Virus record (IMG/VR): IMGVR_UViG_3300029288_000009
Span: 62,001-83,186 of that record
DNA length: 21,186 nt
Reading direction: 5' to 3' (one strand)
Source of the DNA: an uncultured virus (IMG/VR IMGVR_UViG_3300029288_000009)
Lineage: Duplodnaviria > Heunggongvirae > Uroviricota > Caudoviricetes
Shown piece after piece: positions 764 to 20,745 of this stretch. A program made the translations under genes and the position numbers. Position 1 is the stretch's first letter; each line of letters starts with the position of its first letter. A model generated the notes under the pieces. The model ran no database searches. It saw only the letters and a program-made list of their open reading frames with translations, and was not told the origin of the DNA.

Positions 764-806
764 TTTTGAAGAGATCAAGACCATTGGAGTTGAAGCGATG
801 TGGTGA
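654..806 (+). CDS. Unannotated +1-frame ORF, probable frameshift extension of the tail chaperone (T-like part of G-T): FVTTDYGAQLKMELVRLQLRQFSEMTTLRSAMLRYFDFEEIKTIGVEAMW*
   Basis: The +1 frame opens after TGA 645-647 and closes at TGA 804-806, overlapping GTG 803-805 of the next gene (GTGA coupling). The candidate shift site is TTT-CGT at 653-658. Confidence 0.6.
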   Translation, partial: FVTTDYGAQLKMELVRLQLRQFSEMTTLRSAMLRYFDFEEIKTIGVEAMW

Positions 807-1405
807 CGGTACGGGAACTCAAGGCTCGGTTATCACTCACCGACACGACGTTCACGATGGGGATGAGCAAGGCCGCTTCAGCTACGAATAGGCTCCAGCG
901 CAACCTTCAGAACGCCGCGACGAACCTCGTCACTTTTGAATCGACCTTGAAGGGAGTGGATCTCTCCGGGTTAAAAGGCTTGCTCGCATTCGGAACCAAG
1001 AAGCTTGCCATAAGTTTTTCTCTTGATTGGAAAGCGATGCGAGATGACATCAACGCGTTCATAGACGCGAACGGTGGTAAAGGAAGGTTAAAACCTTTCA
1101 AGGATCTCCAGCTAAACCTTGACTGGAAGTATCTCCGAGACCAGATAAACGACTTCGTGGATAAGAAAGGTGCTAAGGACAAGCGCATGAAGGAGTTCAA
1201 GGGGGTGGAGTTCGACGCTAGTTTGAAAGGTGGGTCTAATGAATCGCTTGAAGTTTTAAAGGCTATAGATGGAAAGTTAAACGCGCTGAACTCTATATTT
1301 AATAACATTTCAAATATCAACGCGTCTATAGAGCCAGCTACAGAAGCAATCGTGAAGGCAATCGAGAACAGCGGCGGTATCGCTTCTATACTCGGAGTGA
1401 AGTAA
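800..1405 (+). CDS. Very short tape-measure-like protein (start GTG 800 or 803)
   Basis: The N-terminus 'VRELKARLSLTDTTFTMGMSKAASATNRLQ' resembles canonical tape measure N-termini. The protein looks helical, has an internal 32-aa-period repeat, and follows the chaperone in the canonical position. Confidence 0.6.
   Translation: MVTVRELKARLSLTDTTFTMGMSKAASATNRLQRNLQNAATNLVTFESTLKGVDLSGLKGLLAFGTKKLAISFSLDWKAMRDDINAFIDANGGKGRLKPFKDLQLNLDWKYLRDQINDFVDKKGAKDKRMKEFKGVEFDASLKGGSNESLEVLKAIDGKLNALNSIFNNISNINASIEPATEAIVKAIENSGGIASILGVK
1022..1195 (+). repeat. Internal 96-nt (32-aa) period duplication in the tape-measure-like gene
   Basis: LDWKAMRDDINAFIDANG..RLKPFK starts at 1022 and LDWKYLRDQINDFVDKKG..RMKEFK starts at 1118. 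The DNA reads cttgattggaaa vs cttgactggaag. Confidence 0.85.
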
Positions 1406-4231: not shown

Positions 4232-6096
4232 GCACGGAAAACTACGGGATGTTGCGGCAAGGGTTTAGGGCTAAGAACCTCGCGAAGATCGTACAAGAGA
4301 ACCGCGTGTTGCTCAAGGAATACTTCGGGGCAGACGTGGATGTTACCGGCATGAACCCGCTTGTTAAGTTTGACGAGGTGGAGTCCCGTGGCGTGGAGCG
4401 AGCGTGGGTAGAGCTTGGAAACTTGTTTAACTCCGGGAATATCAAGGATGCTGAAGGCCAGTTCTTGGACGACCTCGCGCTGTCGATGGGGAAGGAGCGG
4501 AAGCTCGCCGCGAATGCTACGACAAGGTTAACCGTTCTTAAAACATCCGGGTCTTCTGATATAACCATACCCGCTGGGTTCCGCGTGGATAACCAGTCAT
4601 CATCTTCGCTGAAAGAGTTTGAAGTGGACGAGGACACGTTGCTCCCTGGCGTGTTCGTGATAAAGAAAGGAGTCGCTGCTGGTATAGATAGCATAAACGG
4701 GTATCCTGGATTTACAGACTTCTTTAATATACTCACGACTGGAGTAGAATGGGTTTCGCCTAACAAGGATGGTTCTACACCTTGGACTGGTGGAGCTGTG
4801 GACTACGCTCTCGTGGTTGCTGGAACGTACACGACTGGTATAAACTGGGCTGCTGCTGGATTGGAACCAGCGACCGATTCTATCTACTACGTGAAGGTGG
4901 GAAGCTACAGCGCCTACGTGGATGTCACCGCAGTTCTCGCCGGGTCGTTATCGAACGCCCAGATCAACGAGATACACCACCAGCAAAATCCACTCTATGC
5001 GATAGCGAAGGTCACGAACGAGTCTACCATACGGAACGGGCGAGACCTTGAATCAGACACGGAACTACGCCGCCGTCTTCTACAAGCATCCTACCTCTTG
5101 GATAACGACGAGCAGATGACCGCGTGGCTCCAGCAGCTCCACAAGGTAACGTCGGCAAAGGTAATAACGGATCTCTACCAGGACTACCGCGGCCACTTCC
5201 GGTCTCTTGTACACCCTCTCGATGAGAACGACCTCGTGAGCGTGTATAACGAATGCTTGCTTGAAACTGAAACGAGAAAGGCGGCCGGGACTAGTTCGGT
5301 TGCTATAATTAGGATGGTGAAGGGTGGAGCAGCAGCGGTAACCGACGTGTTCCCGTCCCCATACAGACAGACTGCTGGAGTGTCCGGCGTGTGGAGGATA
5401 GACTGGGTTAACTCCCGATACGATGGAACCGGAACGGCGTATGTCGCTGGCACACATTACAACGCTTATACACCGTACATGGATCAGATAGAGTGGATCG
5501 CTGCTGGTCCCGGCGCTGCTCAATACTTCGTGAAGCTCGTGAAGGCAGTGGAGATAGCAGAGACCTTCCCGCTAAGGATAGCAGCGAAGTTATACTTGAA
5601 ACAAGGCTACGACTTATCCACGGTGTCAGCAGAGTTATTCTCTGAACTAAACTCGCATATCAAGACCATAGGAGTAAACGGGATACTCTACATGGCAGAC
5701 GTGTTTAGGATAATCACGGCGCACGAGGGGGTGAAGTATGCGGACGGGTTGTACATGACGCTGACGTGTAGAATTTACAGAGGGCCAGTTGCGGATACCG
5801 CCGACATTATTCCCATCAATGGAAGTGGTAGATATGACGACACTTCCGCAACTGTTTTAGATATCGTGTGGGCGTCGTTAAGTAAATTAGGGACAACTCC
5901 ATACACACGAAGTGTTGATTATCTTTGGTTACCAAGCACGGTACAAGGTGTCAGACGTATTGATTGGAGTCCTGGCGCTCCAGGTCCAGAACCTCCAGTG
6001 AATAATCCATATTGGGTAAAGTGCTACGTGAAAGCTGATATAACTTCTCCGATAGATTGTCTTGTAGTTCTCGATGGATGTGATTTCACGATATGA
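4228..6096 (+). CDS. Baseplate J/gp47-family wedge protein with three inserted repeats
   Basis: Hallmark motifs 'YGMLRQGF', 'AEGQFLDDLA...RKLA', 'ITIPAG', 'VDVTAVLAG', 'NGRDLESDTELRRRL', 'IGVNGILY'. Confidence 0.9.
   Translation: MSTENYGMLRQGFRAKNLAKIVQENRVLLKEYFGADVDVTGMNPLVKFDEVESRGVERAWVELGNLFNSGNIKDAEGQFLDDLALSMGKERKLAANATTRLTVLKTSGSSDITIPAGFRVDNQSSSSLKEFEVDEDTLLPGVFVIKKGVAAGIDSINGYPGFTDFFNILTTGVEWVSPNKDGSTPWTGGAVDYALVVAGTYTTGINWAAAGLEPATDSIYYVKVGSYSAYVDVTAVLAGSLSNAQINEIHHQQNPLYAIAKVTNESTIRNGRDLESDTELRRRLLQASYLLDNDEQMTAWLQQLHKVTSAKVITDLYQDYRGHFRSLVHPLDENDLVSVYNECLLETETRKAAGTSSVAIIRMVKGGAAAVTDVFPSPYRQTAGVSGVWRIDWVNSRYDGTGTAYVAGTHYNAYTPYMDQIEWIAAGPGAAQYFVKLVKAVEIAETFPLRIAAKLYLKQGYDLSTVSAELFSELNSHIKTIGVNGILYMADVFRIITAHEGVKYADGLYMTLTCRIYRGPVADTADIIPINGSGRYDDTSATVLDIVWASLSKLGTTPYTRSVDYLWLPSTVQGVRRIDWSPGAPGPEPPVNNPYWVKCYVKADITSPIDCLVVLDGCDFTI
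4660..6024 (+). repeat. Three ~75-85-aa homologous insertions in baseplate J (approx. 4660-4899, 5314-5538, 5773-6024)
   Basis: Shared pattern (K/R)G....D...(V/I).W......G...(Y/W)....(D/H)Y....I.W...G.(E)P....Y(Y/F/W)VK. Confidence 0.8.
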
Positions 6097-9000
6097 TCGA
6101 TGAATTAATTTCATACATTCCAGAGTCTTCATATTCTGACAAGAAGATGCTCAAGCTTTACAGCGGGCTAGCGAAGAATGGAATCATTATCTCGAACTCG
6201 GATATAGAAGCAACCACGACTCCAGATCAATCGCCTCTTATCGTGAAATCTGAAACTCCAGGAAACAAGAACCACAAAGTCGTCGTTACGAGGCTAAGAG
6301 ATGATGATGGTGTTTACAAGGTTCAATCGGCACACGTCATCCCGTTTAACAAGAAAGGTTCTGTATCACCTCTGACTTTATCCAGTGTCGATATAGAAGA
6401 TTCCTTCGTTAGCACAGGATACGATAGATTCGCGAGGTTCGGTGAGAAACAGTCGTGCGATACGTTTGTAGATTGCATCGATGATTTAACCGGGATATTC
6501 CCGTCGAGCTTCTTGAATATACTTCCAAGGGGAAGCGTGATGCGGGCATACGATGGATATAGTTACAGATCGTTATGCTATTACATCGACACGTTTTTGG
6601 AATCGTCTCCTGGTGTTTACTTCGGAAGTGAAAACAATGCTGGAGGGCTACTTGGATTCCCTCTCGATGGAAAAACATCTTTTCAGTTGGTGAAACAAGG
6701 AATAGACGCTGTTTTCTCCATTTCTGAAGGAACGAGGATAACAAGTGGGTTATACCGCAACGATAAATCCGGGTTGCTTAAGAAGTCTGCATCAGCAACG
6801 GATTGGGAGTCAGACGCTTCTTTAGATCTTATAACGAAGTGGAATAACCATCTTGAAAGCATCGAGTCTGACCCAAGTGGAAACGATGGATTTGAGATTG
6901 AGATTCACGACGGAAAGAAAGGGTGGTGTAGCTTTTGGTTGGATCTTGCCGGGTTAGAACACGTAGAGCAGAACCACGTCGTAGAAAATTTTGAAATTTA
7001 TGCGGTAGGAAACGATCCTAGTGTTATCGATCCGGGACATTGGACGAAATGGATAACTGGGGCATCTACATTTACGGTTCAAGTTGTTGGAGGATCGCAG
7101 ATGGGAGATATGTTTGCTCCTTTAGGAGGATGGGATATACAAACATTATACACCTTCGATAATTCATCGCCAACCATATTTCCGTTTACTATAGAGTTTA
7201 AAGCTGGTGTCAGCACGGTGGATTTAGTTATTCGATCTATTTTCATTTATGGGGTGGGAGGTACAACATCGAGCCTAATAAGATTTTTCAGTACAATGGA
7301 TCTTGGCCATTCGTTACAAGCATCTCTTGGATACGTAGCTGGAACGATATACAACTTCAAGGTTGTTATATTGAATCAATCTTATTTCGATATTTACATA
7401 AACGGTGTTTTATTCAATTTTAGCGGAGTTCACTACACTATAAATCCAGCATTTGTATTCCCGATAACCGGATTGTATATGTCTGCTATAAGCGCTGCCA
7501 ATAACCAACATCTTTATATGGATGTCATCGCGCCGAGTTGGATTATATCATCCGGTCAAACTTCCTGGCTCGAACTCTCTGAGACACGCGACTTCCTCCC
7601 AGACGCGACGGCGAACATCTACTTCCATAATGACGAGATCTATAACGAGGGAAACACACTATATCGAAACATCAACTTCAAGAAACTCCACCGCGTCACA
7701 CTCTCGTGGGACTACACCGTTGCATCCCCGTGGAACACGTTCCGTCTTGACGATCTCGACCCGAAGGAATTCACGTGGGATGACGGTGGTTCAGCTCTTG
7801 TTAACGGCTTCGCGATAAACGCGATTCGCATAGCGGCGAACTACGTGCCGGTCAGAGTCCACGGCTTCTGTCAATCCGGCGACTACTTCCCCTTCGTCCA
7901 CGCAGAGTCTAACAAGCAGAACTACTTGCCCTTCAACTTGGACTTGCTGGAGAAGGTGACCGGGATACTCGGCCCTAACCGGCGGGACACGGAAGGTTTT
8001 AAGAATCTACGGGCAACGCAACCAATAACCGTGGACATGAGCTGCTACACGATAGGAAACATTGCTGGTCAAGGGTCGTGGGTTGCGAACGCTGGTGATG
8101 ACCGGAACGGAACTACTGAAATACACGACATTGTAGAATGTGGTGACACGGACGCTTTTTTCGCGTTGAAAGGATTGCAGCCGTATGGGTACGAAGGTTT
8201 CAACACGTATATTGATGGAAGTAAGATACGTGACGTGAACGGCTGGAACGCATGGGTTGAACATGCTTTATGTACTTTTGTTAAAGATTCCGGAAAGGCG
8301 CGGTTAGTCAAGACTGGTGATACGGGAGGTGCTATCACGAAAACAATGACATTTAGCACACCGTGTTCGGCAGCCGGTTGGTATGAGTTTAAACTTTCAT
8401 TAAATTCGATTAGTGTTGCTGACCAACAATTCCGGTTCTATAGTGGTGGTAGTCTTATCCATTATATGCGTATTTCGAGTCTTGGTATTTTCGCGTGTTA
8501 TGACAATCTTACAAGTCGAAACATCATTACGCCGATGATTGCGTCTACGGAATACACCATTCGTATCGTGTTCGGAGACAACGCGACATATCATCTTGAT
8601 GTCACGCCAATTGGTGGAAATGTTACGAGATTTCCACCAATTGGCGAATACACGAACTATAATGGTGGTACCGGATTTGTATCGTCGTTTGTTATAAACA
8701 GCCTTCAAACAACCGTTGTTGATTTCACGATTGACGATATCATCACGTCTTGGAACACTCTCGGCCCCGACATCCTCGCAACAACCCCGGTCGGGAAGGG
8801 GCGTGTGCTGAAAATATATGACAACAACGCTGGTCTAAACTTGGATTTTCAGAAGACAATTCTCGAAACAAAAGCGCCGAATGGTAGGATCTCTTTCGAG
8901 TGCTGGCCGGTTACTGGTGCTGGCGGGACGTTCTTACAATTCACGTTAAAAGAGGATGCTAACATCCGGATACAATTCTACATAAACTTGACGACCGGTG

Positions 9001-12000
9001 TTGTCTATCTTTATAACAACGTCCCAGCATGGGTTTCTACTGGGTTGACGGCATCGTTAGACGCTGTGAATCATTTTGAAGTTGAATGGTCAAACACTGA
9101 TAGAAATGGTGATGCAAACCCAGACGCTCGTGTAATATTGAACGGCGTGTATAGCCCTTGGATAAGAGCGTTCTCAAATTGGGTGACCGGGATAAATATA
9201 TTTAACATATTAACCGGTGTTGCTAACACCGGTATTGAAGTTTATATCAATGATATCACACTTATCACGACTGGTTTAGCATTTAATTCAGCGATAACCA
9301 AGCCTCAAATCTCCTACCCAGACGGAGACTTCCTCGACGTTCGCTTCCTCCAGCGCGGTCGTGAGCCGGTCGTGGAGCCTTATGTAAGGTTGGTAAATGC
9401 TTCCGGTAATGGTACGGAGCAACGCCTTGTATCCTTAAACGATACCGCCGTGATGGATCACCGCGTGGACGAGGTGAACGTCTACATCCCCACCACACAG
9501 ACGAACTACCGTGTACTCGGCGCTGGTGGTGTCAATGCCCAGTGGACAGACGGCCTTATTCCGAACCATTGGTTGCCACTCGCCTTGACGCATCAGATCC
9601 ACGCAAAGTACCCACGTCTGTTCACTCACGATACGTTCTACAACCGGTATCAATTCTGTTACTCTGCAATGACATCGCTGATAACGGAATACTCGCGCAT
9701 AATCGTGGCTAACTTGAACTACGAGAACTGCGCCGAGATGGAATTCACGCCTAGCGTCCACCCGTTCATACACCCGAATAACATAGCGTTCTACCGGGAT
9801 TGTGAGAATGCTCTACCGGAGAAGTTTAGTAATTCGCCGCAGAGGATGAGGAAGTCCGTGCTGGTTCCACAAGAGTTCTTCGCGGACTACGCGGTAGACG
9901 CGGATATAGTTGCTGCTGCGGCCGCGTGGACGGATGGTGGAGCTGCTGCTGGAGCTAGCTTCACGTGTGTTATGGACGAGGGGATGAAAGTTGGGAAGTA
10001 CGTGAGGGACGCTGTTTTATACACGCCTATATACACGTTTCAAACACCGTCTCCAACTATACCCGGTGTTTATTCGATATCATTTGATGTTAAAGCAACG
10101 GTGGGCGAGTTTAAAGTTAGAATAATGGACGCCGCTGGATCGCGCATCTATCTATGGTTCCGCACTGCAAATTACGCTTTGTGGAACGAAACCGGCCCTG
10201 TTTTGATAGCAAACAACGCATGGGGTGCAAGTGATGAATATCCCGCCTATGTAAACGTGAAACTCGTTATTGTTGGAATCGGTGATTTTTACGTGATCGT
10301 TAACGGAATAACGTACGATAATGCTGGTGCGTATTACGCTAATTCATCCAATTTCACTGGGCCGATAACAAAGCTTCAATTCTATTCTACTGCTGCGAAT
10401 ATGTTTTGTATAAAAAACATAGCACCGAACTGGAAACTCTACCCGGACATCGACGCAGATGACTTCATAGTACACCCGCAATACCTCGGACACGCTAAGC
10501 CCGTGGAGATAGTGTCGCTAGAGGACAAGTGGGGTTTTAGGGATTATGGGAAGTACACGGCAATCTCCAACGCGCATCCAACGCGCTCGTGGGTGTCGTT
10601 CTTTATCACAGCTCCATATGGCGTGGATGAAGGAATTGGAGAGGTGATCCTCTACGATATTGCCGGGAACGAAATGCTTTACATTCAAGTAAACCCGATG
10701 AATAACACGGACTTCTCCGTGCATCCCAAGATGATGCTCTACGATTCCACCAGCGCTGGAGGCGCATTGACCGCGATAGATGGAACGTGGAACGGATGGC
10801 TTCCAGTGACCGTCGAGTTCGATAATGATAACCGGAAGGGGAATATCTACTTCCACGGGCAACTCGTTGCGGGCAACATAACACTCGGAGCTGGAGCGCT
10901 GGTGGGCTTCGGTAAGGTCGTGTTCCTTAGCGGGCTCAAGACTGTTGCCCCGGTGCTTGGTATATGGAGGCAAGAAGACTTCCAATCCTACGCGGAGGCT
11001 GCGGCTCCTGGTGCTCCGTGGGCAATCGTTGCTGGTGGAACCACCGCGTTTACAGCGAGGTATTTGGACGGTGATTCTCGTGGGTATTTGAACGATACCG
11101 ACGGGGCTGCCACGCTATCAGCGCAACTGATGTTTCCGATACCATCCACAGCAGCTCCGGCAGCAGCAAGCCCTTATGCTATTAAATGGTCTCAGCAGAT
11201 AAACACTCTTACTAATAACGGATATGCTGCTCGCATAACAGCGGCCGCTCCAGCGAACGGTGACCTTAGAATACAGATACGCGCTGGTGGTGCTATATGG
11301 AACTACACGGCTGGAGCGTGGGCTAACACCGGTCTATTCGCTCCCTTCCCCACGCTAGAACACGAGATCACCATCCAGTTCACCACGAACGCCTTGTATA
11401 ACATCTACGTGGACGGCGTGTTGCAGAACGCTGCCCCGTTAGCAGTTCAAGTGGCGTTCGCTGCGGTGATAACAGACCTAACGTTTTACACGGAAGCGAA
11501 TGCTGATACAGCACAAGTTTACATTGACGACATCGACGTGAGCTGGTCTGATTGCGTTCAGACTGCTGATATACACCACGTCCACGGCTCCCTACTCATT
11601 GACGGTATAACGTTCGGCGGGTACGACAACAGCAACAAGGACTTCTCATCGCAGACAAAGAACTTGTTTATGCTCCCCTACCGGGACTACATCAACCCGC
11701 ATCACTCGACGTTCCATAACAATCTAAACGGGCTTGACCAAGATATAATCCCGTTGCCTCTGTACAACGCCGTCCCGGACGCGTCGTTTAACATTGCTTC
11801 GTGGACACGCGGTGCGTACTGGGATTATTATTCGCTCGCAACTGCTGGAATGTACGGCGGTGTAGTTCGTAACTGGTACGCGTGGAAGTTCCCCTACGTT
11901 TTCGGCGGGAGGTTTGACGAGCCTAACAAGGATATAAAATCAATAGCTCGCCTATACCACGATGTTGCAACTGCGGACAAGAAGACGAGTGGTAAATGGG

Positions 12001-13862
12001 AATTCGTGATGCACGGGAACGCGAGGCAAGTCTACAACGTTAAAGATGATTTCACGGCATACTTGGATGGTGCTGACATACACGGACTGAACGGGTGGAC
12101 GATCTTTCTTTCCGGTGGAAACACGTCGATCCTCGTTAACGGGTATGAAAACAAAAAGGTATTGCATTTTATCGATAACAGCGGGGCTGCATATTGTCAA
12201 GCTACGAACACGTTGGTTAATGAACGCACGAAAGTTTGTTACGTTCATTTAAAAATGGAGATAGATTCCATTACAGACCAGTTCGTGATTTTTTTAGACG
12301 ACACTGCTGGAAACCATACCGCTGCTGTTAGGTTTGAAACTACCGGTCAAATACAAACGATGCAAGCTGGGGCATATGGTAACATAGTTGCATATCTCGC
12401 TAACACGGAATACGATGTCACTATTAAAGTCGATATCGTTCTTGGTAAATATTGGGTTTATATAAATAACATAATGTACGGTGGAATGGTTGGTTATAGT
12501 CTTGGGAATGCCGTTGCAACCGGCGTTAAAACAATTGAATTGCTTACCGACACTGGTGCTATGACTTATAACGTTTATCTATGGGACTTCTCCGCCTACG
12601 GCGAACCCGGTTCCATAGACGTTACCCTCGACTACGACAAGCTCTACGATTCCGGCCTCGTGGAGATCCCCACGCCTCCGATGGATATCTGCGAGAAGTG
12701 GCAACTTCAATTCGTTCCCGCGTCGATAGGAACCAAGGCGATCATACAAGGGGACGGCATATCCGAGGACTTCCAGCAGTACCTCACGAACGTCGTTCCC
12801 ACGACCGGGTGGACTATTGCCGGGGCTTCCGCGACGGCGTGGTTCAAGACGCTGGATGTTGGCGGGAACATCATCGGGTCTTTCCACGATTTTGATGCCG
12901 CCGCGACGCTAGCTGCATCGTTTGTTTTTCCAACACCTAGCACTAATCCGATTTCGCTTAGAACGTGGGTATCCGCTGATATGACACCGATAACAATCAG
13001 TGGACAAAATATGTGGATGTACGTTCGATCCGCCGTTGCTGGAACGATTTACCTTGGTGTTAGTTTCACGACCGGAAACGAGATCAGAGTGACCCAGGGT
13101 GCTGGAACGATATTGATCGGGACGTGGGTTTCTGGCGTTAAATATCGCGTTCAAATCATCGTTATATCATCATCTCTTTACGATGTTATCATTAATGATG
13201 TTCTATACGATAACGCTGGCGCACATTACACACCCTCGTCTCTTTTCACGGTTGCGAACGTTATAGGATCGTTATATTTTGGAGCCGGTGTTATGGCTAT
13301 GACGAATACAGATGTTTATATCGATAATATCGCAGCATCTTGGCTGCGCGCTCCCACCACCATCGCGAACTACGACAAGGCAAAAGCCCTCCACAAGTAC
13401 ACGGTCGAGTGGGATACCGGCTTCATATGGACAAGCATAGATGACAAGTTAGTAGATCAGCGGAAGTATGCCGGTCGCGTCCCGTTCTACTTGGACAAGT
13501 TCAAGGCTCACGTGTGTAGCGGGTATGGGCTCCACGAGATATATGCGGTGATGTTCGGGGCGCAATGCGATAACGAGGCGGCATACGAGCCAAACTGCCT
13601 TGACTTGATACCTGGTGGAACGATGGAGCAAGAGGGATACACCGGCATCTTGAACACGCGAAACAAGGGAACCTACGCGCTCTTGAACGCTGAAGACGAG
13701 TGGACGTTAGAGAAAACAAACTTCTGGAAAACGATGATGCTTGATTCCGGCGGGCTACCAGTTCTCGGTAACTTCGATGACGTTCAGAACGATCTCGTGG
13801 AGTTAGAAAAGAAAGCCGTGGGACATCGGAGCAACGTGTATAACAACGCTAACAAGGTGTAA
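6093..13862 (+). CDS. Giant (2589 aa) virion adhesin / receptor-binding tail fibre or baseplate protein with ~10 ConA/LamG-like beta-sandwich domains
   Basis: ATGA-coupled to baseplate J. The protein is beta-rich, aromatic- and Gly/Thr/Asn-rich, with recurring modules that begin E(D/N/G)F..Y....W and end (V/F)YID.I..SW. No signal peptide or TM anchor is visible. Confidence 0.75.
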   Translation: MIDELISYIPESSYSDKKMLKLYSGLAKNGIIISNSDIEATTTPDQSPLIVKSETPGNKNHKVVVTRLRDDDGVYKVQSAHVIPFNKKGSVSPLTLSSVDIEDSFVSTGYDRFARFGEKQSCDTFVDCIDDLTGIFPSSFLNILPRGSVMRAYDGYSYRSLCYYIDTFLESSPGVYFGSENNAGGLLGFPLDGKTSFQLVKQGIDAVFSISEGTRITSGLYRNDKSGLLKKSASATDWESDASLDLITKWNNHLESIESDPSGNDGFEIEIHDGKKGWCSFWLDLAGLEHVEQNHVVENFEIYAVGNDPSVIDPGHWTKWITGASTFTVQVVGGSQMGDMFAPLGGWDIQTLYTFDNSSPTIFPFTIEFKAGVSTVDLVIRSIFIYGVGGTTSSLIRFFSTMDLGHSLQASLGYVAGTIYNFKVVILNQSYFDIYINGVLFNFSGVHYTINPAFVFPITGLYMSAISAANNQHLYMDVIAPSWIISSGQTSWLELSETRDFLPDATANIYFHNDEIYNEGNTLYRNINFKKLHRVTLSWDYTVASPWNTFRLDDLDPKEFTWDDGGSALVNGFAINAIRIAANYVPVRVHGFCQSGDYFPFVHAESNKQNYLPFNLDLLEKVTGILGPNRRDTEGFKNLRATQPITVDMSCYTIGNIAGQGSWVANAGDDRNGTTEIHDIVECGDTDAFFALKGLQPYGYEGFNTYIDGSKIRDVNGWNAWVEHALCTFVKDSGKARLVKTGDTGGAITKTMTFSTPCSAAGWYEFKLSLNSISVADQQFRFYSGGSLIHYMRISSLGIFACYDNLTSRNIITPMIASTEYTIRIVFGDNATYHLDVTPIGGNVTRFPPIGEYTNYNGGTGFVSSFVINSLQTTVVDFTIDDIITSWNTLGPDILATTPVGKGRVLKIYDNNAGLNLDFQKTILETKAPNGRISFECWPVTGAGGTFLQFTLKEDANIRIQFYINLTTGVVYLYNNVPAWVSTGLTASLDAVNHFEVEWSNTDRNGDANPDARVILNGVYSPWIRAFSNWVTGINIFNILTGVANTGIEVYINDITLITTGLAFNSAITKPQISYPDGDFLDVRFLQRGREPVVEPYVRLVNASGNGTEQRLVSLNDTAVMDHRVDEVNVYIPTTQTNYRVLGAGGVNAQWTDGLIPNHWLPLALTHQIHAKYPRLFTHDTFYNRYQFCYSAMTSLITEYSRIIVANLNYENCAEMEFTPSVHPFIHPNNIAFYRDCENALPEKFSNSPQRMRKSVLVPQEFFADYAVDADIVAAAAAWTDGGAAAGASFTCVMDEGMKVGKYVRDAVLYTPIYTFQTPSPTIPGVYSISFDVKATVGEFKVRIMDAAGSRIYLWFRTANYALWNETGPVLIANNAWGASDEYPAYVNVKLVIVGIGDFYVIVNGITYDNAGAYYANSSNFTGPITKLQFYSTAANMFCIKNIAPNWKLYPDIDADDFIVHPQYLGHAKPVEIVSLEDKWGFRDYGKYTAISNAHPTRSWVSFFITAPYGVDEGIGEVILYDIAGNEMLYIQVNPMNNTDFSVHPKMMLYDSTSAGGALTAIDGTWNGWLPVTVEFDNDNRKGNIYFHGQLVAGNITLGAGALVGFGKVVFLSGLKTVAPVLGIWRQEDFQSYAEAAAPGAPWAIVAGGTTAFTARYLDGDSRGYLNDTDGAATLSAQLMFPIPSTAAPAAASPYAIKWSQQINTLTNNGYAARITAAAPANGDLRIQIRAGGAIWNYTAGAWANTGLFAPFPTLEHEITIQFTTNALYNIYVDGVLQNAAPLAVQVAFAAVITDLTFYTEANADTAQVYIDDIDVSWSDCVQTADIHHVHGSLLIDGITFGGYDNSNKDFSSQTKNLFMLPYRDYINPHHSTFHNNLNGLDQDIIPLPLYNAVPDASFNIASWTRGAYWDYYSLATAGMYGGVVRNWYAWKFPYVFGGRFDEPNKDIKSIARLYHDVATADKKTSGKWEFVMHGNARQVYNVKDDFTAYLDGADIHGLNGWTIFLSGGNTSILVNGYENKKVLHFIDNSGAAYCQATNTLVNERTKVCYVHLKMEIDSITDQFVIFLDDTAGNHTAAVRFETTGQIQTMQAGAYGNIVAYLANTEYDVTIKVDIVLGKYWVYINNIMYGGMVGYSLGNAVATGVKTIELLTDTGAMTYNVYLWDFSAYGEPGSIDVTLDYDKLYDSGLVEIPTPPMDICEKWQLQFVPASIGTKAIIQGDGISEDFQQYLTNVVPTTGWTIAGASATAWFKTLDVGGNIIGSFHDFDAAATLAASFVFPTPSTNPISLRTWVSADMTPITISGQNMWMYVRSAVAGTIYLGVSFTTGNEIRVTQGAGTILIGTWVSGVKYRVQIIVISSSLYDVIINDVLYDNAGAHYTPSSLFTVANVIGSLYFGAGVMAMTNTDVYIDNIAASWLRAPTTIANYDKAKALHKYTVEWDTGFIWTSIDDKLVDQRKYAGRVPFYLDKFKAHVCSGYGLHEIYAVMFGAQCDNEAAYEPNCLDLIPGGTMEQEGYTGILNTRNKGTYALLNAEDEWTLEKTNFWKTMMLDSGGLPVLGNFDDVQNDLVELEKKAVGHRSNVYNNANKV
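6981..13343 (+). repeat. Six ~186-194-aa homologous modules at 6981-7541, 8190-8753, 9870-10433, 10971-11546, 12042-12599, 12762-13343
   Basis: Starts: VENFEIY, YEGFNTY, QEFFADY, QEDFQSY, KDDFTAY, SEDFQQY. Ends: MDVIAPSW, IDDIITSW, IKNIAPNW, IDDIDVSW, LWDFSAY, IDNIAASW. Lengths are near-identical (558-582 nt). Confidence 0.85.
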
Positions 13863-13865
13863 CAA

Positions 13866-14522
13866 ATGGACATCACCCTATCCAATATGAACGTGAACCC
13901 GGAAACATACGGGAAGTTTTTCTCCCTCTACTTGAACGACTTCAAGGCGGAGCGAGATGCCGCGATGCGGTTATTCGACGTGTACACCTTCACAAACGGT
14001 TATACCGATGACCTATTTCAGTTTAGTATCATCGGTCTCCAAGGTTCCATAGCGCGCCTACTCGCCATCCCAGCGATCCAGCTCAGCCAGATCCGGGACA
14101 CGGCGAGGTGGATACACTTCTCCAAGCTCATACAAAACAAGAGTGGGTTATCATTGTTAAAAAGCGCCGAGGAGATGCTTCCGGAATCACCGGCGGACAT
14201 CGGAGAGGAGAACACGCGAGATCTAATGGAGTTAATGTTCAAGAGAAAGAAGCCGAACATGGAAAACTTGAAAGACTTCCTCGCATCGCTCTACGGTGTA
14301 AACAAGAAGTATTTCACGATAGGCGAGCGTGAATCACAAGCCGCGGTGGATATCCCCATCGTGTATCCCCGCCCTAACGGGATAATCGAGTCATCTGGCT
14401 TTAACTCCTTCTTGGAGAGCGTGATCGACAAGTTTAAATCAGCGGGAATCACTTATGTATATGTAGAAATACTCACAGTAGTAACTACAGTACACATACA
14501 TTCGATAGTGACGATAACATGA
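13866..14522 (+). CDS. Baseplate wedge subunit (P2 gpI/Mu gp48-like)
   Basis: 'NMENLKDFLASLYGV' and the C-terminal 'VIDKFKSAGITYVYV' match the wedge-I family ending (K/R-P/S-A-G/H). It sits in the baseplate operon. Confidence 0.6.
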   Translation: MDITLSNMNVNPETYGKFFSLYLNDFKAERDAAMRLFDVYTFTNGYTDDLFQFSIIGLQGSIARLLAIPAIQLSQIRDTARWIHFSKLIQNKSGLSLLKSAEEMLPESPADIGEENTRDLMELMFKRKKPNMENLKDFLASLYGVNKKYFTIGERESQAAVDIPIVYPRPNGIIESSGFNSFLESVIDKFKSAGITYVYVEILTVVTTVHIHSIVTIT

Positions 14523-14995
14523 AAATAAGAGGATACTTTGAAATCATCGACCCGGTAACCGGGAAAGTCTTAGCACACGCTGAAAACGACTTGTTAAGCA
14601 AAGGAGCGCGGTTCTTGACATCGTTTGTCGCGAATAGGATGGTAGCGGACGGGTATGGAGCCGCGGCGGTCTACGTTACTCGCATTCACTACGGTAGTGG
14701 TTCTACTCCAGTGGATAACGTGAATGACTTCCGGATGGAGTCTTATGTCGGGACAATCGCGCTTACAACAACAGCGAGGGTTTCTGACACGCTGGTTACA
14801 ATCACCGGGACCATAACCGGGGCAGCGGGAGGGACGTTCATAAGCGAGCTAGGACTTGGGCTGACAGCGGTAGACCCAGCAAACTCTGCGAACTACGTTA
14901 ACGCGGTGATAGACCGCGCCGTGCCAGCTTCCACGATAGTCGTGCCAGAGGGTGTTTCCAGGACGATAACGTATAACTTCGAGGTGATATTATGA
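14519..14995 (+). CDS. Stand-alone tail-fibre attachment/collar-like protein (DUF3751-like fold)
   Basis: The pattern 'ENDLLSKG..FL...VTRIHYGSG......DFRM...ISELGL...IDRAV...TITYNFEV' is typical of fibre N-terminal attachment domains. Confidence 0.6.
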   Translation: MKIRGYFEIIDPVTGKVLAHAENDLLSKGARFLTSFVANRMVADGYGAAAVYVTRIHYGSGSTPVDNVNDFRMESYVGTIALTTTARVSDTLVTITGTITGAAGGTFISELGLGLTAVDPANSANYVNAVIDRAVPASTIVVPEGVSRTITYNFEVIL

Positions 14996-15195
14996 ACGTT
15001 CAGAAAGTGTTGGTTTACTCGACTATAATAATAGCTCTTGTTTTTGCAGCATTATGGTCATTCGCTGTGATAACCGGAGTAAACTACATTAGGGATAATA
15101 TCGATACAATTTCTGGTAGTGTCGAAACGGTTGTTAATTATTTTGTAGATTTCTTTAAATCGATAATAGATGCAGTTCCGGTGTATAATCTATGA
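14992..15195 (+). CDS. Small membrane protein (one N-terminal TM helix plus amphipathic helix); holin-like candidate
   Basis: Hydrophobic stretch VLVYSTIIIALVFAALWSFAVITGV. ATGA overlaps at both ends. Confidence 0.6.
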   Translation: MNVQKVLVYSTIIIALVFAALWSFAVITGVNYIRDNIDTISGSVETVVNYFVDFFKSIIDAVPVYNL

Positions 15196-17826: not shown

Positions 17827-17846
17827 CCTATACTTTCGTGGTCGAG

Positions 17847-18770
17847 ATGGATTTTCACCCTTTTAATCGCAAGGAATTGGGCGACAAAATCACTCTTTCA
17901 ATAACCATTGGACGCGCTGTTGCATTGACCGGTGGTATAGGAGTAGGCAAGACGTTTCTCGCGCGAGCCGCGATGGACCATATCAAATGCAACGCGATAG
18001 AGTTCGACGCGAATTTTCCGATACAAGAAGCCAGGATTCCTAAACAAGCCTTCAGCTTCGGTAAAAGTTATGGCGTTCTGATAGAAGGAATGGAAAACGC
18101 AATTGCTGATACTTACAAGATGATAAAGAAGCACGTGTTTAAAGACACTTCAAAAAATGGAGATGGTTTGTGGTATGAATCGAGGTTTCCCACCATCTTT
18201 TGCATCTCCAGCAAGTCTAAATTCAAGTTCGGAGAAAAATACTGCGATTTTATAGAAGTACCACCGCTTTCACGAGAAGATATCATCGACGTGTTATCCA
18301 GCATAAACAAGAAAGATTTTGCTCCGGATATCTTGTATGTGATAGCGGATTCTTGTAAAGGAGATATACGGAAAGCGATAAACGCCATGCAAATAGGCCG
18401 GATAGAGGAGACTGGTAAATACGATAAACTTTCCGACATGGTTAAGGTGTTTCTTGGTTGCGACCCGGAAGATCGAATATCGGTGCTTGCCGATAATAAG
18501 GTTGGAGAGTATGGCGGGGTTGGACTGGAGTACCTCATATCACTTGTATCAAGGAACATTAAAGGCTCCGCTGCTGAAGTTAAAAGCGACATGAAAATAC
18601 TCGACAATGCTTCTCGCTTGAAGTACGTTAACGCGGAAGCTGCGAAGTTAATGCTATGCGGTCTAAACCAAAACCGCGTGAGATTTTTAAAGTGGCCTAA
18701 GAAGAAGGTGGATAAGAATGAACCCGGACACGATAATGCAAAAACTAACATGGCTGTCGAAGAGGATTAA
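17847..18770 (+). CDS. rfcL: Replication factor C large subunit-like clamp-loader ATPase (start 17838 GTG or 17847 ATG)
   Basis: Walker A GGIGVGKT, 'IEFDAN' (cf. IELNAS), degenerate Walker B 'VLIEGME', 'SRFPTIFCI' (cf. PIILIAN), and sensor-2 'CKGDIRKAINAMQ'. Confidence 0.75.
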   Translation: MDFHPFNRKELGDKITLSITIGRAVALTGGIGVGKTFLARAAMDHIKCNAIEFDANFPIQEARIPKQAFSFGKSYGVLIEGMENAIADTYKMIKKHVFKDTSKNGDGLWYESRFPTIFCISSKSKFKFGEKYCDFIEVPPLSREDIIDVLSSINKKDFAPDILYVIADSCKGDIRKAINAMQIGRIEETGKYDKLSDMVKVFLGCDPEDRISVLADNKVGEYGGVGLEYLISLVSRNIKGSAAEVKSDMKILDNASRLKYVNAEAAKLMLCGLNQNRVRFLKWPKKKVDKNEPGHDNAKTNMAVEED

Positions 18771-19317
18771 CCTCCGCGACAAGAAGATGTTATCCCTCGC
18801 CTATAACCTACTCGACAAGGCGAAAGCGGATGGATACATCAAGGATGCCCAGTTATTCCAGATAGTCCACGCCTATGTCTCGGCGGCCAAGCTAATGGGA
18901 TTACACGTTAACTTGTTTCAGTTAAAGAAGATAACCAAGGTTCAAATTGGATTAACTGGATTAGAGTTATACATTAAAACAATAGCGCCTTTACTGAACA
19001 TCCAGCGAGCTAACTTCTCTTTGCTCGAATACGGGAAGCGGAAGTTAAATCGACACGTGTTAAGCATTCCAGCTTGTGAGATGTTCGTGGATGCACTACA
19101 AGGTATAGAGAAGGATTTATCGAAGGTCGTGAATAATGGGAACATGGATAGATACCTCGGGTCGCTGCTGTACGTGGTCACGAGGACGCTAAACGTCCCG
19201 CCTTCCTTCGCCGCCGTGTGTCGGATGTTCCACGTGAGCGAGGTAAAAATGCGGGCGGTGATGCCGGTGATAAACGAGATGTTAAACAAGAAGAAGGAGA
19301 ACGAGAGCAATGAGTGA
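18718..19317 (+). CDS. TFB/TFIIB core-like protein (two cyclin folds, no Zn ribbon)
   Basis: Repeat 1 is 'LSKRINL...LAYNLLDKAKADGYIK...IVHAYVSAAKLMGLHVNLFQL'. Repeat 2 is 'GNMDRYLGSLLYVVTRTLNVPPSFAAVCRMFHVSEVKMR', paralleling TFB 'G.SP..LAAAALY......TQ.EVA....VTEVTVR'. Confidence 0.7.
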   Translation: MNPDTIMQKLTWLSKRINLRDKKMLSLAYNLLDKAKADGYIKDAQLFQIVHAYVSAAKLMGLHVNLFQLKKITKVQIGLTGLELYIKTIAPLLNIQRANFSLLEYGKRKLNRHVLSIPACEMFVDALQGIEKDLSKVVNNGNMDRYLGSLLYVVTRTLNVPPSFAAVCRMFHVSEVKMRAVMPVINEMLNKKKENESNE

Positions 19318-20233
19318 AACATACGCGCAAAAATACGAGCCTAAATATTATGACGAATTGATAGAATGTGACGAAGTAAAAGAGTTATTCAAATCGAAAA
19401 CAGCAGATGAGATGCTTAACTACGCGTTCACCGGAACACCAGGAACGAGCAAATCATTGATGGCGAAGATAATCGCGAATGATAAGTTTCCACGAAATAA
19501 TCACACGTGGAACATGAGCCTTGAAGGGACTAAAGCGAATATAGAATCAGAGGTGATGTCTTTTTGTAGCGAACCGGCGCTTGGTGGAGCGAAATACAAG
19601 CTGGCGATATTCAGCGAGGCTGATGGAATAACACCGGCAGCTCAGAAGGCTTTGCGCGTCCCGATGGAGGATTTCGCGGACACGATAAAGATAATCATCA
19701 CCGCGAATTATCAATCCAAGATAATCGACGCTCTTCTATCTCGTGGTTGCACGATACGGTTTAATAAACCTTCCTTGAAAGGAATCATCGAGTGGGTTAG
19801 CCGGATTGCTTCCGGAGAGAAGTTGAAAATAACAGAAGCGCAGATACAAGGCGTTGCTAAGGAAGCTGGCGGAGACTTCAGAAAGGCTGCTAATCTTCTC
19901 CAAGGGTGGACCGCGGGAAAGAAGGTGTTCTATAAAGTCAAGACGGAAGTGGATAAGGATATCTCAGATTATCTAAAGGAGATATTAGTACCAGATCTTG
20001 ACAAGTCAATGACCTTAGCCGAGTCAATGCTACTCAAGTATAACGAGCGTGACCTTGTAAATGATATTACCAGGAAGATCGCGACCAGTACATTACCACA
20101 GCTAGTCAAAGCTAATATACTGGTATCTTGTAAAGATCTAGCTCTATCAATAGAACATACTGACTCGTATGTAGCAATACACGGGTTTACTGGAGATCTA
20201 ATTAAATACATAGCTGCGGTGAAGAAGAAGTGA
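19310..20233 (+). CDS. rfcS: Replication factor C small subunit (clamp loader)
   Basis: 'YAQKYEPK' (cf. WVEKYRP), 'FTGTPGTSKS', 'YKLAIFSEADGITPAAQKALRVPME', 'IIITANYQSKIIDALLSRG', 'GGDFRKAANLLQ'. Confidence 0.9.
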   Translation: MSETYAQKYEPKYYDELIECDEVKELFKSKTADEMLNYAFTGTPGTSKSLMAKIIANDKFPRNNHTWNMSLEGTKANIESEVMSFCSEPALGGAKYKLAIFSEADGITPAAQKALRVPMEDFADTIKIIITANYQSKIIDALLSRGCTIRFNKPSLKGIIEWVSRIASGEKLKITEAQIQGVAKEAGGDFRKAANLLQGWTAGKKVFYKVKTEVDKDISDYLKEILVPDLDKSMTLAESMLLKYNERDLVNDITRKIATSTLPQLVKANILVSCKDLALSIEHTDSYVAIHGFTGDLIKYIAAVKKK

Positions 20234-20655
20234 AGATAATAAGAAAGCTTACATACACGGATAAGAGTTATATCAAGCTAGATGATGAATATCCGTTATC
20301 AGCTTATATATACGGAGAAGTTCATAACCTGGATGATGTAGTTAACTTAGATATACTAGCTAGAGATATACTACATAGAAACGGTATAAGATATACTGGA
20401 GATCCAATATTATATCTAAAGAATAGCTATACTTGTAGCTACTGGCCTCAATGTGGTAGATTTATACCGGATAATGACGGTGTTAAAGATAGTAGGAGAG
20501 CTAAAGGTAACAAGTTCATACGGTGTAGTAAATTAACTAGTAAAGGAGTACAAGGTATATTTGATACTACAATGATAGAGTTCGAGAGGAGAGTAGCTAC
20601 AATAACTAGTATTAGTGACTCTAGCAGCTTTAATAATAATATTATAGTTCACTAG
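20230..20655 (+). CDS. Hypothetical protein with atypical TA-rich codon usage
   Basis: 141-aa open frame with a GTGA overlap to the rfcS stop. No family was recognised, and it lies in the CTAG/TA-rich zone. Confidence 0.5.
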   Translation: MKIIRKLTYTDKSYIKLDDEYPLSAYIYGEVHNLDDVVNLDILARDILHRNGIRYTGDPILYLKNSYTCSYWPQCGRFIPDNDGVKDSRRAKGNKFIRCSKLTSKGVQGIFDTTMIEFERRVATITSISDSSSFNNNIIVH

Positions 20656-20745
20656 TAATTACTAGTTATATTAATTATATTTATATAGTATCTTAGCTAC
20701 GGGAGGAGCGAAGCGACGACCCTCCTCTAGTAAGCTCTAGTAAGC
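20630..20745. other. Candidate replication origin (or packaging/terminus signal)
   Basis: An AT-rich tract at 20630-20698 contains the perfect 16-bp palindrome ACTAGTAATTACTAGT (20651-20666). A GGAGG/CCTCC stem (20702-20706/20721-20725) encloses GCGAAGC (20708-20714). CTCTAGTAAG occurs twice in tandem (20725-20744). This overlaps the longest intergenic region in the window. Confidence 0.5.

Follow-up and report, generated by a model that had tools for sequence, protein, structure and literature searches.

The giant open reading frame at positions 6093–13862 (plus strand) of the window – the whole stretch of 21,186 nucleotides that we analysed – encodes a 2589-aa protein (P0001) that, as judged from its sequence, carries six homologous modules of ~190 aa (M1 to M6). 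Modules M1, M2, M5 and M6, together with a further segment, scaffold b, are insertions in otherwise continuous sequence when P0001 is aligned with its orthologues. By the same alignments and by profile comparison b is itself a seventh module, and the presence of M2 inside b is the sole proven case of same-family nesting in P0001. The virus record is 83,186 bases long, bears direct terminal repeats and is a complete genome; the window, which includes a tail module, makes up its final 21 kb, and the features of the locus are collected in Table 1.

Table 1. The giant gene, its segments and its two neighbours (positions in the window; all on the plus strand)
Feature	Position	Strand	Remarks
Baseplate J / wedge subunit (BW2), 622 aa	4228..6096	+	directly upstream of the giant ORF
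Giant ORF (P0001): conserved trunk, scaffolds a–d, seven family modules	6093..13862	+	
N-terminal trunk, aa 1–249, without family match	6093..6839	+	conserved in orthologues
Scaffold a, first part, from an approximate start to just past the GWCSFW strand	6840..6980	+	
Module M1, insert in scaffold a	6981..7541	+	95 bits, independent profile
Scaffold a, second part (approximate end)	7542..7874	+	joined to the first part in P0002, P0094
Scaffold b (seventh family module), N-terminal strands and linker	8028..8189	+	profile positions 6–39, 5.2 bits
Module M2, insert inside module b, two deep	8190..8753	+	missing from each of the four full-length orthologues
Scaffold b, C-terminal part, aa 888–1058	8754..9266	+	profile positions 38–188, 47.5 bits
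Conserved trunk, aa 1059–1259, possibly including the initial strands of scaffold c	9267..9869	+	
Module M3, putative insert	9870..10433	+	102 bits; in 5/5 full-length proteins
Scaffold c body, aa 1448–1626, likely ConA-like	10434..10970	+	12.7 bits, profile positions 60–152
Module M4, probably separating the final two strands of scaffold c	10971..11546	+	108 bits; 5/5
Likely last strand of scaffold c (LLIDGITF)	11547..11615	+	family last strand; HHalign 0.9%, not significant
Scaffold d, first part (approximate start)	11928..12041	+	contiguous with later parts in P0004, P0094
Module M5, insert in scaffold d	12042..12599	+	absent in P0004, P0094
Scaffold d, middle part, aa 2170–2223	12600..12761	+	GC3 z +3.3
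Module M6, second insert in scaffold d	12762..13343	+	absent in P0004, P0094
Scaffold d, last part, GH16-like strand motif	13344..13568	+	Pfam Glyco_hydro_16 E 0.006, below cut-off
C-terminal trunk and stop	13569..13862	+	relatives read on into the wedge core here
gpI / Mu gp48 / Wedge1-like baseplate wedge core (BW3), 218 aa	13866..14522	+	

The module family and its empty alleles

The modules lie in frame and span aa 297–483 (M1, 187 aa), 700–887 (M2, 188 aa), 1260–1447 (M3, 188 aa), 1627–1818 (M4, 192 aa), 1984–2169 (M5, 186 aa) and 2224–2417 (M6, 194 aa). An earlier note on this DNA had proposed six such modules of 186–194 aa belonging to one family; the modules and the flank motifs that it quoted are all present, and the family relationship is borne out by leave-one-out comparisons, in which each module, scored against a profile made from the remaining five, reached 26–85 bits; the highest-scoring of 200 shuffles gave no more than 9.6 bits, and reversed sequences no more than 4.5. 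Identity of the other modules to M1 is only 17–27%. A recent tandem duplication within the giant gene is ruled out: neither BLASTP comparison of P0001 with itself nor a DNA repeat search detected repeats.

Searched against 1.84 billion representatives, the module profile retrieved 91 proteins with E no higher than 0.001, and the family has no model of its own in Pfam, PHROG or NCBIfam. M5 matches Pfam PF22585 (Sialidase-like_CBM) at 27.2 bits, with a cut-off of 27, and Atlas gives the same lead for this module; the other five match neither PF22585 nor PF13385 (Laminin_G_3) at E 0.05, and whole P0001, at 24.7 bits, falls under the cut-off. Among 22 aligned family members, six match Sialidase-like_CBM and two match Laminin_G_3 at E 0.05. 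Sequence searches against solved structures found nothing below E 0.1, and word-based protein searches returned P0001 itself or nothing. From these weak Pfam matches we infer that the modules are putative lectin-like sugar binders with a predicted ConA-like fold.

Our full-length set comprised five proteins: P0001 and its colinear orthologues P0002, P0003, P0004 and P0094 (about 30–45% identity), of which P0002 to P0004 came from the module-profile matches and P0094 was found via the open reading frame next to the giant gene. M1 is absent in P0002 and P0094, where its conserved anchors lie 57 and 62 residues apart versus 253 in P0001. M2 is absent in all four orthologues, with an anchor gap of 28–34 residues in three of them versus 244 in P0001, and M5 and M6 are both absent in P0004 and P0094 (gaps of 25 and 20 residues versus 212 and 219 in P0001). 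Since the flanks are rejoined wherever M1, M2, M5 and M6 are missing, four of the six modules are dispensable inserts. The proposal that the modules are inserts rather than a simple tandem array therefore stands for these four, and leaves M3 and M4, which are present in all five full-length proteins and have no empty allele, as putative inserts. Neither locus scans of viral, genome and metagenome contigs nor tblastn among 50,697 phage records detected a relative of the locus; the contigs bearing P0002 to P0004 and P0094 are 44–85 kb long.

Scaffolds and nesting

An independent profile was built from 149 family domains with the orthologues left out. HHalign gave 21% for the N-terminal part of b alone, 97.6% for the C-terminal part and 98.8% for both parts together. 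The two parts, split by M2 in P0001, are contiguous in P0002, P0003 and P0004, and this unsplit b scores 41–55 bits over nearly the whole independent profile; a profile alignment of it extends over 180 columns (block-shuffle p = 0.003). In P0094, the one orthologue of the four that lacks b altogether, the trunk runs straight across the site. As b is absent in P0094, whole in P0002 to P0004 and split in P0001, it is itself an insert and M2 sits two deep; the earlier note, which had counted about four scaffolds carrying six daughter domains, had not seen that one of the four is a daughter too. What speaks against this reading is that P0001 on its own failed the automatic peeling threshold and that adding the N-terminal part of b changed its score only from 55 to 55–62 bits (controls 52–57); the case for b is carried by the orthologues.

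The same note had taken the scaffolds to be apparently of the module family, which the profile and HHalign results confirm for b. With the profile of the six modules alone, no scaffold scored above 2.9 bits. Against the family, scaffolds a, c and d gave HHalign values of 0.4–4.6%, which are not significant, and p = 0.06–0.56 in the block-shuffled profile test; scaffold-to-scaffold comparisons were not significant. A weaker test, in which single-sequence HMMs were combined with block shuffles, gave p = 0.002–0.05 in seven of nine tests of scaffolds a, c and d (the exceptions being a of P0002, p = 0.36, and c of P0003, p = 0.09), versus p = 0.23–1.0 in five of five trunk or wedge controls; the nine tests include orthologues, which are not independent, and the p values carry no multiple-test correction. 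The body of scaffold c reached p = 0.002 in this test and about 1% by HHalign, and the empty allele of a in P0094 scored 14.1 bits (block-shuffle p = 0.005). By eye, the strands of a, c and d follow the family order. For these three scaffolds family membership is thus not significant by HHalign or profile and ranges over p = 0.002–0.36 by single-sequence HMM; we regard them as likely diverged ConA-like sandwiches, as a prediction. The remaining trunk is conserved, with 34–46% identity to the orthologues over aa 1–296 and 40% identity to all four over aa 1059–1259; the N-terminal trunk has no match to the module profile, and the latter stretch is without a family match.

Nesting recurs across the family. 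Complete modules, 159 altogether, are held by 87 of 95 proteins, and peeling them out of the 95, under the assumption of nested rather than crossed pairing, exposed a further full-length module in nine, a third level in two and a fourth in one (P0019, residues 52–845, with hosts scoring 64–121 bits). The insertion offsets in hosts are 7–37 and 108–109 residues; in P0055, P0035 and P0039 the insert reads as lying ahead of the final strand, as with M4, and M2 and these relatives have short end linkers in common. We also observed a branched three-deep self-nesting in P0008 (474–1272) and a single host bearing two near-identical inserts in P0012 (584–1040).

Two more genes of the virion region, outside the window at record positions 58260–59255 and 56109–57710, each hold a module-family copy (aa 49–232, 26 bits, and aa 48–211, 16 bits, respectively). 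In the former the module looks, by eye, inserted into a small head-tail joining protein.

Probable baseplate linkage and codon signature

The giant gene directly follows the baseplate J (BW2) gene, whose product matches Pfam Baseplate_J (E 3.9e-16) and phrog_6 baseplate wedge (E 1.4e-33). The open reading frame on its other side (13866–14522) has no match in Pfam, PHROG or NCBIfam; Atlas gives it feature scores of 0.90–0.93 to the Phage_Wedge1, Tail_P2_I and Mu_Gp48 clusters and a TM of up to 0.56 to the Wedge1/gpI/gp48 clusters, with family shares mostly under half. Six relatives (P0002 to P0004, P0094 and the fragments P0093 and P0095) fuse the giant protein to a homologue of this wedge core, and a stop separates the two in P0001 and P0006. 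The fusion to a gpI/gp48-like wedge core points to a baseplate-wedge extension rather than a trimeric fibre. The earlier note had likewise set P0001 apart from a linear trimeric fibre, and for the giant protein neither a fibre family nor fibre repeats, a coiled coil or a chaperone domain came up in Pfam, PHROGs or NCBIfam. P0001 probably extends the third wedge protein (BW3); because the stop splits it from the wedge core, its own attachment to the wedge can only be inferred from these relatives.

In the baseplate J protein we noted three related interruptions of ~60 aa (aa 168–232, 385–440 and 540–606; window 4729–4923, 5380–5547 and 5845–6045), the first and third of which match at E about 1e-5 and the second weakly; they are likely small inserted decoration domains. 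The gene at the tape-measure position (window 800–1405) encodes only 201 aa, with a weak phrog_339 match (E 0.095), and would imply that the tail is very short or that the gene is split. An imperfect AT-rich palindrome, possibly regulatory or an origin, lies at window 20633–20684, intergenic after the open reading frame 20230–20655. Finally, two clamp-loader (RFC-like) genes flank a TFIIB-repeat gene at window 17838–20233, as judged by Pfam and PHROG matches; these genes point to an archaeal host, and the tailed virus is likely archaeal.

Codon usage separates modules from their surroundings. The amino-acid-corrected residual of third-position GC (GC3) is −0.089 for the modules (1085 codons) versus +0.133 for the scaffold and trunk between them (896 codons), and none of the 2529 circular shifts is as extreme as the module mask. 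The z values are −5.6 for M1, −3.9 for M2, −2.9 for M5 and −2.1 for M3; M4 (+0.5) and M6 (−0.8) are near the gene average, yet below their flanks (+2.7 to +4.3). The N-terminal 296 codons are also low (z −2.1). In this analysis, the median third-position GC of 51 mechanically called open reading frames of at least 200 aa is 0.60. The low module GC3 could reflect later arrival or exchange, or else faster drift rather than a foreign origin.

The modules diverge faster than their flanks: between P0001 and P0006, M6 is 53% identical and its flanks 81–93%. In a module tree built from 72 of 176 module hits, in which many nodes are weak, M2 is placed with P0038 (0.89) within a clade (0.92) whose modules belong to non-orthologous proteins, away from its neighbours, and M3 of P0004 and P0094 groups with P0016 (0.96). 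Across the orthologues, none of M1, M3 and M6 forms a single clade, a pattern that swapping or noise may account for. Inspection of the module ends by eye revealed no obvious target-site duplication. Organism names are attached to five of 30 clusters – Promethearchaeota, of the Asgard archaea (P0011, P0016 and P0021, which bear the name of OmpL47-type surface proteins), Bathyarchaeota (P0017) and Nanoarchaeia (P0062).

Proposed working and known systems

We consider it probable that P0001 is a branched, multivalent adhesin on the baseplate rim, an outward extension of BW3 and a predicted glycan binder. In this model, the conserved trunk would carry predicted ConA-like beta-sandwich domains whose loops are occupied by the ~190-aa lectin-like modules. 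The two ends of each module would lie side by side, and, with its ends adjacent, a module could bud from a loop as the host domain stays folded. Scaffolds a, c and d would be older, diverged domains of the module fold, and M3 and M4 older inserts. Each wedge contains one BW3, giving six per baseplate; six arms would then display about 42 modules, and weak contacts with cell-surface glycans would act in concert before sheath contraction. Modules would be inserted, lost and likely swapped in the scaffold loops, arriving through ordinary recombination from a pool common to other viral and archaeal surface proteins, and their gain, loss or swap would retune host range with the wedge core untouched.

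We entertain, tentatively and with less than even confidence, a more specific account of how the modules spread, in which the M2-type module would be a lectin cassette that inserts itself, brings its own linkers (a Gly before the first strand and a short Gly-Pro turn after the last) and moves among archaeal surface proteins and the virion proteins of archaeal viruses. With one copy lodged in a homologue, the corresponding N- and C-halves of the inner and outer copies could recombine by double crossover, each event deepening the nest by one level, and such endonuclease-free homing would explain the four-deep tower of P0019, the branching in P0008 and the near-identical inserts of P0012. If this were true, scaffolds a, b, c and d would all be fossil layers left by the same process.

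Returning to the branched adhesin, a reading that we judge unlikely holds that P0001 is mostly beads on a string, with M2 in b the only true domain-in-domain and the other modules placed in linkers that join small trunk domains or in unrelated scaffolds. The non-significant HHalign, profile and scaffold-to-scaffold comparisons of a, c and d fit such an arrangement. However, the pieces of scaffold d flanking M5 and M6 comprise 40–75 residues of strands and merge into one ~165-aa unit in P0004 and P0094, and a, c and d match mid-profile in register in seven of nine tests as compared to none of the five trunk controls. Rather more doubtful is the suggestion that the same architecture serves another role, namely that it stiffens or shields the baseplate, binds protein (S-layer or pili), or that d is a GH16-like hydrolase opening surface polysaccharide. 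ConA-like folds bind proteins too, and the Pfam matches of the modules are at or below cut-off, which leaves room for such a role; the enzymatic variant can draw on a GH16 motif found in d of three proteins at E 0.006–0.016, although this match covers about 30 residues only. Against this, fast module divergence together with gain and loss suits ligand-facing parts, and some members of the family adjoin polysaccharide lyase and NPCBM domains.

That the long open reading frame is an assembly chimera of several related viruses strikes us as highly improbable. A single contig spans window 5000–15000 without a difference or a joint, but it may be the source assembly and hence not independent, and M2 is unique to P0001 among the full-length orthologues. 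A second sequencing run yielded short pieces only, one of which (197 bases) is identical over 8729–8925 and has too few letters on one side to bridge the M2 junction. Against a chimera, 2589 codons remain open in a complete genome with direct terminal repeats, no alternative joints were found, the orthologues are colinear with the same sites, and the M2-type cassette and its linkers recur in other proteins.

Domain insertion is usually inferred from a single structure. At this locus, separate insertions are caught present or absent in five orthologues and bear a codon signature, which opens the order and the source of the events to study; the contribution of the locus is this series of alleles, together with the codon signature and a family of cassettes nesting four deep. 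The likely picture is that P0001 grips the surface of the host with many exchangeable hands, a prediction from sequence that points to contractile-tailed viruses adding binding sites without a longer fibre. It gives candidate receptor-binding modules for an uncultured virus group, and the loops at which a ~190-aa sandwich accepts entire domains may be of use in protein design.

Our literature search, which covered few subscription papers, found no same-family nested lectin or LamG domains in viral adhesins or baseplates, with the caveat that the supplementary dataset of PMC13114784 may list ConA-like self-insertions; a P0001-type protein is not described in the accessible part of the Asgard virus paper (10.1101/2021.07.29.453957). 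Each element on its own has precedent: recursive insertion, split-domain adhesins, carbohydrate-binding modules (CBMs) on BW3 and CBM inserts in virion proteins. In dairy siphophages, CBM insertions in Dit, Tal, neck and tail proteins aid adsorption (PMC6669499, PMC7533335, PMC10688798). As in these evolved Dit and Tal proteins, putative CBM-type inserts sit here in conserved virion proteins, the module being found in two other likely virion genes as well; the scaffold there is Dit or Tal and the hosts are Gram-positive, and same-family nesting was not found in the available portions of the three papers.

A further parallel is Gp119 of Bacillus phage Vp4 (a homologue of A511 Gp105), a BW3 with CBMs for which cell binding was shown (PMC11406892). 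As far as the available text of that paper goes, both Gp119 and, by prediction, P0001 are BW3-type wedge proteins that gained carbohydrate-binding folds absent in relatives, but Vp4 Gp119 has two CBMs in 831 aa as compared to seven homologous modules, one nested, in the 2589 aa of P0001, which, unlike Gp119, comes from a likely archaeal virus and is split from its wedge core.

Two cellular proteins offer parallels in architecture, compared here on the sections of the papers open to us. In the RTX adhesin AhLap, ligand-binding domains bud from split host domains, with a vWFA domain emerging from an RTX roll and a further insert from the vWFA (PMC12077191). AhLap resembles P0001 in its loop-budding domains with adjacent N and C termini, predicted for P0001, and in the presence of nesting; its hosts, however, are of Ig-like or beta-roll type and bear no relation to the insert, whereas P0001 is a virion protein in which insert and host belong to one family in at least one case. 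SI3 of the cyanobacterial RNA polymerase beta' subunit is built by recursive insertion over six levels, and inserted domains have their N and C ends together (PMC13114784, section 2.2). It shares with P0001 the A1-B1-C-B2-A2 recursion, repeated domains and branching hosts, but while SI3 consists of small hybrid-motif domains in a conserved enzyme, P0001 carries 190-aa lectin-like domains that vary between close viruses.
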